DNA of 1,027 nucleotides, from assembly GCF_003334385.1 (NCBI RefSeq), contig NZ_QOWN01000134.1. One strand, given 5' to 3'. Source of the stretch: Escherichia coli (GTDB taxonomy: Bacteria; Pseudomonadota; Gammaproteobacteria; Enterobacterales; Enterobacteriaceae). Position 1 is the stretch's first letter; each line of letters opens with the position of its first letter. Shown here piece by piece: positions 2 to 1,027 of this stretch. The notes beneath the pieces were generated by a model. The model did not search any database. It was not told the DNA's origin and saw only the letters and a list, made by a program, of their open reading frames with translations. The translations under genes were made by a program, and so were the position numbers.

Positions 2-1027
2 TACATTCACCAGTCCCTGACGCTGCTGAAGCAGTTCATTCCCCAGCCCCAGCAGACGGTTGAATTCCGTATGCTGACCGTTCATAACCAGCATGGACTG
101 GTACACCTTATTCTGCTCTGCCGCCTGCTGACGAATTAACGCCACACGACGGTCTTCCAGCCCGGCAAGCACATCCTGAATGGACTGCGCTTTTTCCTGC
201 ATCTGTGCCAGACGGGACTGCTCAACGGCAAGCTGCTCTGTTGCCTGAGAAAGCCCTTCCGTTACGGTCTTCACCGATGTCAGATGGTTTATCATGAATC
301 CGTCACCGGTTGTCCAGCCAGGGTTAGCCAGAACATACTGATATCCAGCGATTTTTTCCTGCGGGGATTTCACCCGGCTGGCCTGTTCATCAATCAGCCG
401 GTTCTGCTCTGCCAGCGCCGCCCGTGTTCGTCCTTCATTATCTGAGGCTTCAGGCAAAGACATTGACGGCGTTTTATGCGCGATTTCATCTATCGTCAGT
501 GCATACTGGCGCGCTGACTCCCTGGCCTGCTCCTGATTCTGGTACAGCGTATACCATGCTGCTGCCCCCAGCATCACCAGTCCGGGTACGCCACCAACCA
601 GTCCCAACGCACCAGTCATCAGACGTGAGCCCACCGCCGTTGTACTGTTCAGCGCATTCTGGGCTGCGGTTCTGGCAGCAATATTTCTGTTCAGGCGTTC
701 CTGTGTGGCCGCCAGACGGGCTTCTGCAGCAATCTGCATCTCCGTCCCGCGGGCTGCCGCCACAGCCTGCTGTGCACGGTACACGGCTGCCCTTGCCCGC
801 GCCGTGGCAATCTGCGTCCCCCTGAGCTGTGCTTCCGCCAGTGCCACTTCATTACGTGCTGCCGTCACAAGTCCTGCCGTGGCAGACACCGCTCCGGAGG
901 CCATATTGCCAAAGTACCGGGCAACCCCGACGGCAACCAGCGCCCCCGCTGCTGTTGCCACATTATCAATATTACCGGCAACACCGTTCAGCACGCCGGA
1001 GAGCGTTTTCGTCGCTCCGCTGGCTTC
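2..1027 (-). CDS. Putative phage tail tape measure protein (tail length determinant), internal fragment; CDS continues beyond both window edges (N-terminal side past 1027, C-terminal side past 1)
   Basis: Seen in sequence: hand translation of the reverse complement from 1027 gives 342 sense codons with no stop, so the frame is open end to end. Composition is strongly non-random: Gly/Ala/Val-rich hydrophobic segments at residues ~9-57 (LSGVLNGVAGNIDNVATAAGALVAVGVARYFGNMASGAVSATAGLVTAA) and ~136-162 (LMTGALGLVGGVPGLVMLGAAAWYTLY), with Ala/Arg/Gln/Glu-rich helical stretches between and after them. Codon choice is consistently enterobacterial-like in this frame. Established knowledge: tape measure proteins are long, mostly alpha-helical, low-complexity proteins with Gly-rich hydrophobic segments. 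Inference: the family assignment rests on architecture only, not on a database hit; exact boundaries are unknown. Confidence 0.62.

Follow-up and report, generated by a model that had tools for sequence, protein, structure and literature searches.

A conserved linker of quantised length between two hydrophobic stretches of an HK97-type tape measure protein: a candidate helical hairpin

The window, by which is meant the whole stretch of 1,027 nucleotides from Escherichia coli analysed here, lies inside a gene for a tape measure protein (TMP). A single frame of the minus strand is stop-free over the entire window, and the longest complete ORF on either strand is 133 aa. At the nucleotide level the window is 99.5-99.6% identical to the TMP genes of Stx-converting and related E. 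coli siphophages and 99.8% identical to prophage genes annotated as 'phage tail tape measure protein', and it was matched in 1,959 of 5,426 complete E. coli genomes. The corresponding gene of the Stx1a-converting phage Stx1_EH1995 (99.5% nucleotide identity to the window) is 3,243 nt long and encodes 1080 aa. It is found downstream of the major tail and tail-chaperone genes and upstream of M/L/K/I/J-like genes, and the order V, G, T, TMP, M, L, K, I, J is lambda-like and identical to that of HK97. The first-pass annotation took the protein to be a TMP. This is borne out by the position of the gene between the chaperone and the M/L/K/I/J-like genes, by a match to the PHROG 339 profile (E=3e-115), and by three Pfam families matched by the full protein, PF06120 (E=1e-89), PF20155 (E=7e-58), and PF09718 (E=6e-18); a search of the NCBIfam profiles gave no family match. 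The window gene is an HK97-type TMP gene of a lambdoid (Pankowvirus-like, Stx-type) prophage. It is a routine and widely annotated prophage gene, a known gene with a known kind of feature, and nothing is added to the gene content. The small gain offered here is structural. It bears on the layout of the central part of a siphophage TMP within the tail, and on the way in which this part becomes a membrane channel.

Table 1. Features of the window, with residues numbered from the first codon of the window unless full-length numbering is indicated.
Feature	Position	Strand	Description
TMP gene, internal piece	2..1027	minus	342 codons, both ends open; residues 273-614 of 1080 aa
Hydrophobic stretch 1	857..970	minus	residues 20-57 (IDNVATAAGALVAVGVARYFGN...), Gly/Ala/Val-rich, conserved R-Y-F-G
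Linker arm 1	752..856	minus	residues 58-92, heptads, predicted helix, pLDDT 85-96
Conserved Arg-Gly-Thr break	743..751	minus	residues 93-95 (full-length 365-367), exact linker midpoint
Linker arm 2	647..742	minus	residues 96-127, heptads, predicted helix, ends A-A-Q-x-x-L-N
Hydrophobic stretch 2	542..646	minus	residues 128-162, with G-G-x-P-G, more membrane-like than stretch 1
Pfam Phage_HK97_TLTM (PF06120), start of region	5..661	minus	residues 123-341
Antisense ORF	424..825	+	133 aa, 16.5% Pro, inside stop-free run 328-822 (165 codons)

The Pfam layout of the full-length protein is TMP_3 (83-272), Phage_HK97_TLTM (395-686), and Tape_meas_lam_C (862-933), and the linker forms the gap between the first two. 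Window residue 1 is full-length residue 273, which places the linker at full-length residues 330-399. According to the full-length AF2 secondary structure the 1080-aa protein is mostly α-helical. Two differences from Stx1_EH1995 were seen. Window residue 222 (nt 362-364, minus; full-length 494) is Pro instead of Leu (SPQ vs SLQ) and falls within a long predicted helix (full-length 463-506), and residue 280 is Ala in the window and Val in Stx1_EH1995. The TMP of the phage vB_EcoS_phi330 (L002 2185-5427) is annotated merely as 'hypothetical protein'.

Bases 647-856 on the minus strand encode exactly window residues 58-127. The peptide quoted for this segment in the first-pass annotation was correct but comprised only 69 residues, the last one, Asn127, being missing. 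Among the 70 residues are 23 Ala (33%), 10 Arg (14%), seven Gln, five Glu, two Gly, and no Pro. The dominance of Ala, Arg, Gln, and Glu and the scarcity of helix breakers, both noted earlier from the letters of the sequence, thus hold; the four residues jointly make up 64% of the segment vs 34% of the remaining window (Fisher p=9e-6), and the 70-residue span of the 1080-aa protein that is richest in them lies at most four positions from the segment. When the residues are taken singly, Ala (p=8e-4) and Arg (p=0.015) are enriched relative to the remaining window, and neither Gln nor Glu is. The absence of Pro is not significant in the single sequence (p=0.59). Among 48 diverged homologues, which were retrieved by searching 1.84 billion representative proteins and are mutually related rather than independent, Pro accounts for 0 of 3,660 residues in the aligned linkers, and Gly is rare. 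The segment uses 23 GCN and six CGN codons, the other four Arg codons being AGR. No DNA repeats were found within it, and for this reason the resemblance between RGTQIA and RGTEMQIA was rejected as a sign of recent duplication.

The segment had also been proposed to lie between hydrophobic stretches, and the hydropathy profile agrees. The Kyte-Doolittle 19-residue means range from -0.93 to 0.35 within the linker, and peak outside it at 1.09 in stretch 1 (residues 25-43) and at 1.73 in stretch 2 (residues 139-157). Stretch 1 is only moderately hydrophobic, its maximum being under the usual transmembrane hydropathy threshold, and its AF2 pLDDT is 46-61. Of the 48 homologues, 43 have R37 and 38 have G40. 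The most conserved feature of the region is the G-G-x-P-G motif of stretch 2 (residues 145-149, nt 581-595, minus), in which neither G146 nor G149 varies, and 47 of the 48 homologues also have G145. AF2 interrupts the helix of stretch 2 around this motif, at residues 143-147. The same architecture recurs in the 48 homologues: the stretch that contains R-Y-F-G is followed by a variable linker, rich in Ala, Gln, and Arg and terminating in A-A-Q-x-x-L-N, and then by the stretch with the invariant G-G-x-P-G. The spacer is conserved in architecture, not in sequence. A giant homologue of 2586 aa (P0125) contains, within about residues 309-2082, at least 10 repeats of a motif similar to window residues 4-46, a part that lies just before, and takes in, stretch 1.

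A long, Pro-rich ORF on the opposite strand had been ascribed to the Ala/Arg bias of the segment. The ORF is present and Pro-rich. When the codons of the gene were resampled with the protein kept and the gene's own usage applied, an antisense run of at least 165 codons appeared in 54% of 2,000 trials, and the ORF is therefore a by-product of composition. Since the run extends well past the Ala/Arg segment and all three plus-strand frames are open, the cause is the composition of the whole gene, and not that of the segment alone. Between 328 and 1027 the plus strand has stop-free runs of 133-165 codons in all three frames. One could still suppose that 424-825 is a real overlapping gene that is served by the bias of the segment, as an ORF of 133 aa with a start codon does exist. 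The resampling simulation led to its rejection as a gene, the three plus-strand frames are comparably open, and related phages and E. coli genomes annotate the TMP only, all of which makes such a gene extremely improbable.

The structure of the linker was predicted in two AF2 runs, both of the monomer. The first run covered a 200-residue region with a 52-sequence alignment and gave two helices (residues 20-91 and 95-142) that are separated by a break at 92-94; over residues 60-130 the pLDDT is 85-96. The second run covered the full 1080 aa with a different alignment of 47 sequences. It placed a matching break at full-length residues 364-366, with a linker pLDDT of 78-88 and a full-length pTM of 0.34. 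Predictions for monomers are prone to show long helices as folded back. In the linker alignment, mutual information is raised at i,i+3, i,i+4, and i,i+7, as for a helix.

When it comes to heptads, arm 1 has V61, L68, T75, V82, and V89 in position a and A64, A71, A78, A85, and A92 in position d. Arm 2 has A101, A108, A115, and A122 in position d and L105, L112, L119, and L126 in position a, both L105 and L126 being found in 41 of 48 homologues. The conservation profile of arm 1 (residues 58-93) shows a periodicity of 3.5 residues (p=0.0006), and that of arm 2 (residues 95-127) a period of 7 (p=0.007) as well as periods of 3.5-3.6 (p=0.016-0.029). A Fourier test on the hydropathy of the single sequence found no 3.5-residue periodicity across all 70 residues (p=0.63); the heptad periodicity is found only in the conservation profile of the alignment, and only per half. 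At R93-G94-T95 the a/d register shifts by +2. The Thr of this motif is present in 24 of 46 homologues, and the Gly in 16 of 46.

The first-pass annotation described the segment as an extended α-helix or coiled coil. The helical character is supported by the pLDDT values and the heptads by the conservation of each half, while the register shift, the predicted break, and the Fourier test over the whole segment do not support a single rod. On these predictions the segment is most likely helical and coiled-coil-like with heptads, and not one uninterrupted rod. Nothing was found to show that it folds compactly as a domain known for a non-structural function. A spacer of low complexity and essentially without structure would be in line with the biased composition and with an identity of only 30-35% between the linkers of HK97 and of this TMP. 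Against this stand the lack of Pro and the few Gly in the homologues, the periodic conservation, the high pLDDT, and a quantised length, and an unstructured spacer is very improbable.

The lengths of the two halves were counted from the conserved A-x-A-Q to the Thr of the turn, and from there to the A-A-Q motif. Halves of 28/28 were found in 21 homologues and halves of 35/35 in another 21, and none of the counted homologues has 28/35 or 35/28, a total of 63 never being seen. Twenty-two sequences have a linker total of 56 and 23 a total of 70; totals of 77 and of 112 occur in two sequences each, and the three most divergent sequences have totals of 53, 59, or 60. The length of the linker is thus quantised, with the two halves changing in step, and the homologues display no free scaling. 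The Arg-Gly-Thr motif forms the midpoint in both length classes. On a tree made from the flanking stretches, the 28/28 and 35/35 classes are interleaved, which points either to paired changes that happened repeatedly or to a module exchanged as a cassette. The pattern may stem from two old cassettes spread by recombination, not from many independent paired indels. In the long forms P0008 (345-470) and P0033 (341-466), a linker of 126 residues consists of the 70-residue form and a block of 56 residues. This block repeats turn-like motifs (SRSAD, ATGT, KNAD), which suggests that it is an added hairpin or a duplicated unit.

The reading favoured here, with moderate confidence, is that the segment forms a helical hairpin, antiparallel and rich in Ala, between two stretches that putatively insert in the membrane; the segment may lie extended in the tail lumen and fold back after ejection. 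It would consist of two four-heptad helices, with a large residue in position a and Ala in position d, joined by a turn at Arg-Gly-Thr. Such a fold, which is moderately supported, would be Alacoil-like, the Alacoil being a term reportedly defined by Gernert et al. in 1995. The predicted helix-turn-helix has Ala at every seventh position in both arms (64-92 and 101-122) and the turn at 92-94. The arms are equal in length among relatives (28/28, 35/35), these sequences being related and the module possibly moving as a cassette. An antiparallel hairpin, unlike a parallel rod, requires the turn to sit exactly midway in linkers of any length.

Fold searches of the PDB and of BFVD gave no match at E<=0.001, the best having E>=0.18. 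The BFVD matches are mostly predicted TMPs, and some are local, covering 80-100 residues with an rmsd of 2-3 Å. The closest solved folds are all antiparallel hairpins: the receptor-binding domain of colicin E3/E9, the AcrA hairpin, the cytoplasmic domains of chemoreceptors, and SteB. In solved siphophage tails the TMP is built only at the C-terminal tip and most of the protein is unbuilt, and in the solved homologues found by sequence (8RK3, 9OCC, 8IYK) this region is neither built nor aligned. The mutual information between the arms, calculated from only 44 effective sequences, gave no distinct anti-diagonal at the register expected for a hairpin, the peaks at i+j=192 and 172 being of equal height. 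The mirroring of the a/d registers about the turn was considered as an argument for a hairpin and dropped; such an agreement is near automatic, a matching register being available every 3.5 residues.

The main alternative is that the segment belongs, as an unbroken helix, to a parallel coiled coil of three or six strands in the tail lumen. It would then act purely as a ruler of about 10.5 nm (about 2.4 tube rings), with Arg-Gly-Thr as a mere stutter. TMPs are largely helical, and deletions in the TP901-1 TMP shorten the tail, the length of which tracks that of the TMP (PMC5099701). For JBD30, with a TMP of 1158 aa and a tail of 180 nm, the rise is 1.55 Å per residue, and this value and an unresolved lumen density about 20 Å wide (PDB 8RK3) fit an extended rope of three helices without any fold-back in the virion. 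Indels of whole heptads would preserve a parallel coiled coil too, and P0008 and P0033, the two homologues with the 56-residue block, are about 70 aa longer overall. However, the register shifts at the conserved Gly-Thr, where AF2 also breaks the helix in both runs, and a parallel rod gives no reason why Gly-Thr should be at the exact midpoint in both classes, or why a total of 63 should be absent. In addition, the tail of phi330, the TMP of which has 1080 aa and is 97.5% identical to the one studied here, is 'about 145 nm' according to a rough negative-stain estimate (PMC12502783). This corresponds to 1.34 Å per residue, less than for a fully extended helix and in disagreement with the JBD30 figure. 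The continuous rod is left with a minor, yet sizeable, probability.

The first-pass annotation regarded the segment as likely part of the ruler. Its share in the tail length may be about 10.5 nm, half of this (about 5 nm), or zero. If the hairpin were also present in the virion, the 70 residues might add about 5 nm instead of 10.5 nm. The textbook value for the TMP ruler is about 1.5 Å per residue. The TMP_3 domain (L001 5431-6000; full-length 83-272, directly upstream of the window) is predicted by AF2, at pLDDT 88-96, to fold compactly as about eleven short helices in a bundle. If this bundle is real, some 190 'ruler' residues would not measure 1.5 Å each, and the prediction thereby argues against that value for every residue. 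The conversion of TMP length to tail length at 1.5 Å per residue needs checking, and a conserved module with equal arms allows the fold-back of TMPs to be probed concretely and cheaply.

The linker carries a net positive charge in 50 of 52 homologues, with a mean of +4.4, while the mean charge of the sequence outside the hydrophobic stretches is about -1. According to the positive-inside rule, a cytoplasmic loop between two membrane spans carries positive charge, and the linker and its outer flanks show this pattern. Lambda gpH* has been shown to make a trans-envelope channel (PMC12617516), and it is labelled by, or contacts, the inner-membrane ManYZ complex (PMC13190303). In the TMP of TP901-1, the stretch between two hydrophobic regions has been predicted to be cytoplasmic (PMC5099701).

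It has also to be considered that the segment may be mainly a docking surface for tail assembly chaperones (gpG/gpGT-like), which coat hydrophobic parts of the TMP during tail assembly, and that it plays no part itself in setting the length or in injection. A discussion of TP901-1 connects hydrophobic stretches of TMPs with chaperone binding (PMC5099701), and the chaperone genes are situated immediately upstream. On the other hand, conservation in the linker is low save at the core a/d positions, a pattern that suits a helix packing against itself more than it does a specific interface. Docking would also leave unexplained why the positive charge is conserved and why the arm lengths are paired, and as the main role it is quite improbable.

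If the linker does form a hairpin, the two hydrophobic stretches would be placed side by side. During assembly the spacer might lie as a helix in the lumen of the tail tube, like the rest of the TMP. After ejection both hydrophobic stretches might insert in the inner membrane, and the positively charged hairpin could then face the cytoplasm as part of the DNA conduit. The proposal may be widened to HK97-type TMPs in general, which would then carry a conserved, length-quantised, fold-switching module, an extended ruler in the lumen and, after ejection, a hairpin that pairs the two stretches in the inner-membrane section of the DNA channel. Selection on the ejected state would then account for the equal arms, and selection on the ruler state for the total length. 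In this general form the proposal is doubtful.

Several known systems resemble the module in part. The receptor-binding domain of colicin E3/E9 and the AcrA hairpin resemble the proposed hairpin in having two long helices that run antiparallel and bear Ala every seven residues, and gave the best local matches to the model. These matches have an rmsd of about 5 Å over 76-104 residues and are not significant (E 0.4-0.6), and the likeness is one of fold, not of family, with no homology or shared function. The TP901-1 TMP, which is likened here by its description, has a helical stretch between two hydrophobic regions that is predicted to be cytoplasmic, and its tail is shortened by deletions (PMC5099701). 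It differs in that the stretch has 129 residues, that each hydrophobic region has three predicted spans, and that the phage infects a Gram-positive host. Its repeats are of 11 or 18 residues and contain aromatic residues, unlike the heptads found here.

Lambda gpH/gpH* performs the same job and has a homologous C-terminal part (E=9e-21). It is ejected, forms a trans-envelope channel, and has a putative transmembrane stretch. It has 853 aa, is reported to be present in six copies in the tube, and displays no detectable similarity in the linker region. The gp46 TMP of the Pseudomonas phage JBD30 (PDB 8RK3) is a homologue over residues 33-465 including the module (E=6e-27), and forms a trimer in the tail lumen. 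Only 33 C-terminal residues of it are built, and its linker is shorter in the alignment; a count of this linker in heptads was dropped, the pairwise alignment being too gapped.

A close parallel in layout is HK97 gp16 (NP_037710), a member of the PF06120 family which has the same domain order and the same module of a stretch, an Ala-rich linker, and a stretch with GGxPG. It differs in having a linker of 84 residues (35+35) that is 30-35% identical, and in its length of 1089 aa vs 1080 aa. The HK97 TMP is said to have been treated together with gp15, PtsG, and FkpA by Cumby et al. in 2012 and 2015. Compared with the TMP encoded at L001 5185-8427, HK97 gp16 (L003 2185-5454) is a mosaic. Residues 1-280 are 85-90% identical and residues 681-1040 are 30-72% identical (mostly 42-72%); for most of 321-680 the identity is 12-35%, with an island of 65% at 401-440 (stretch 2).
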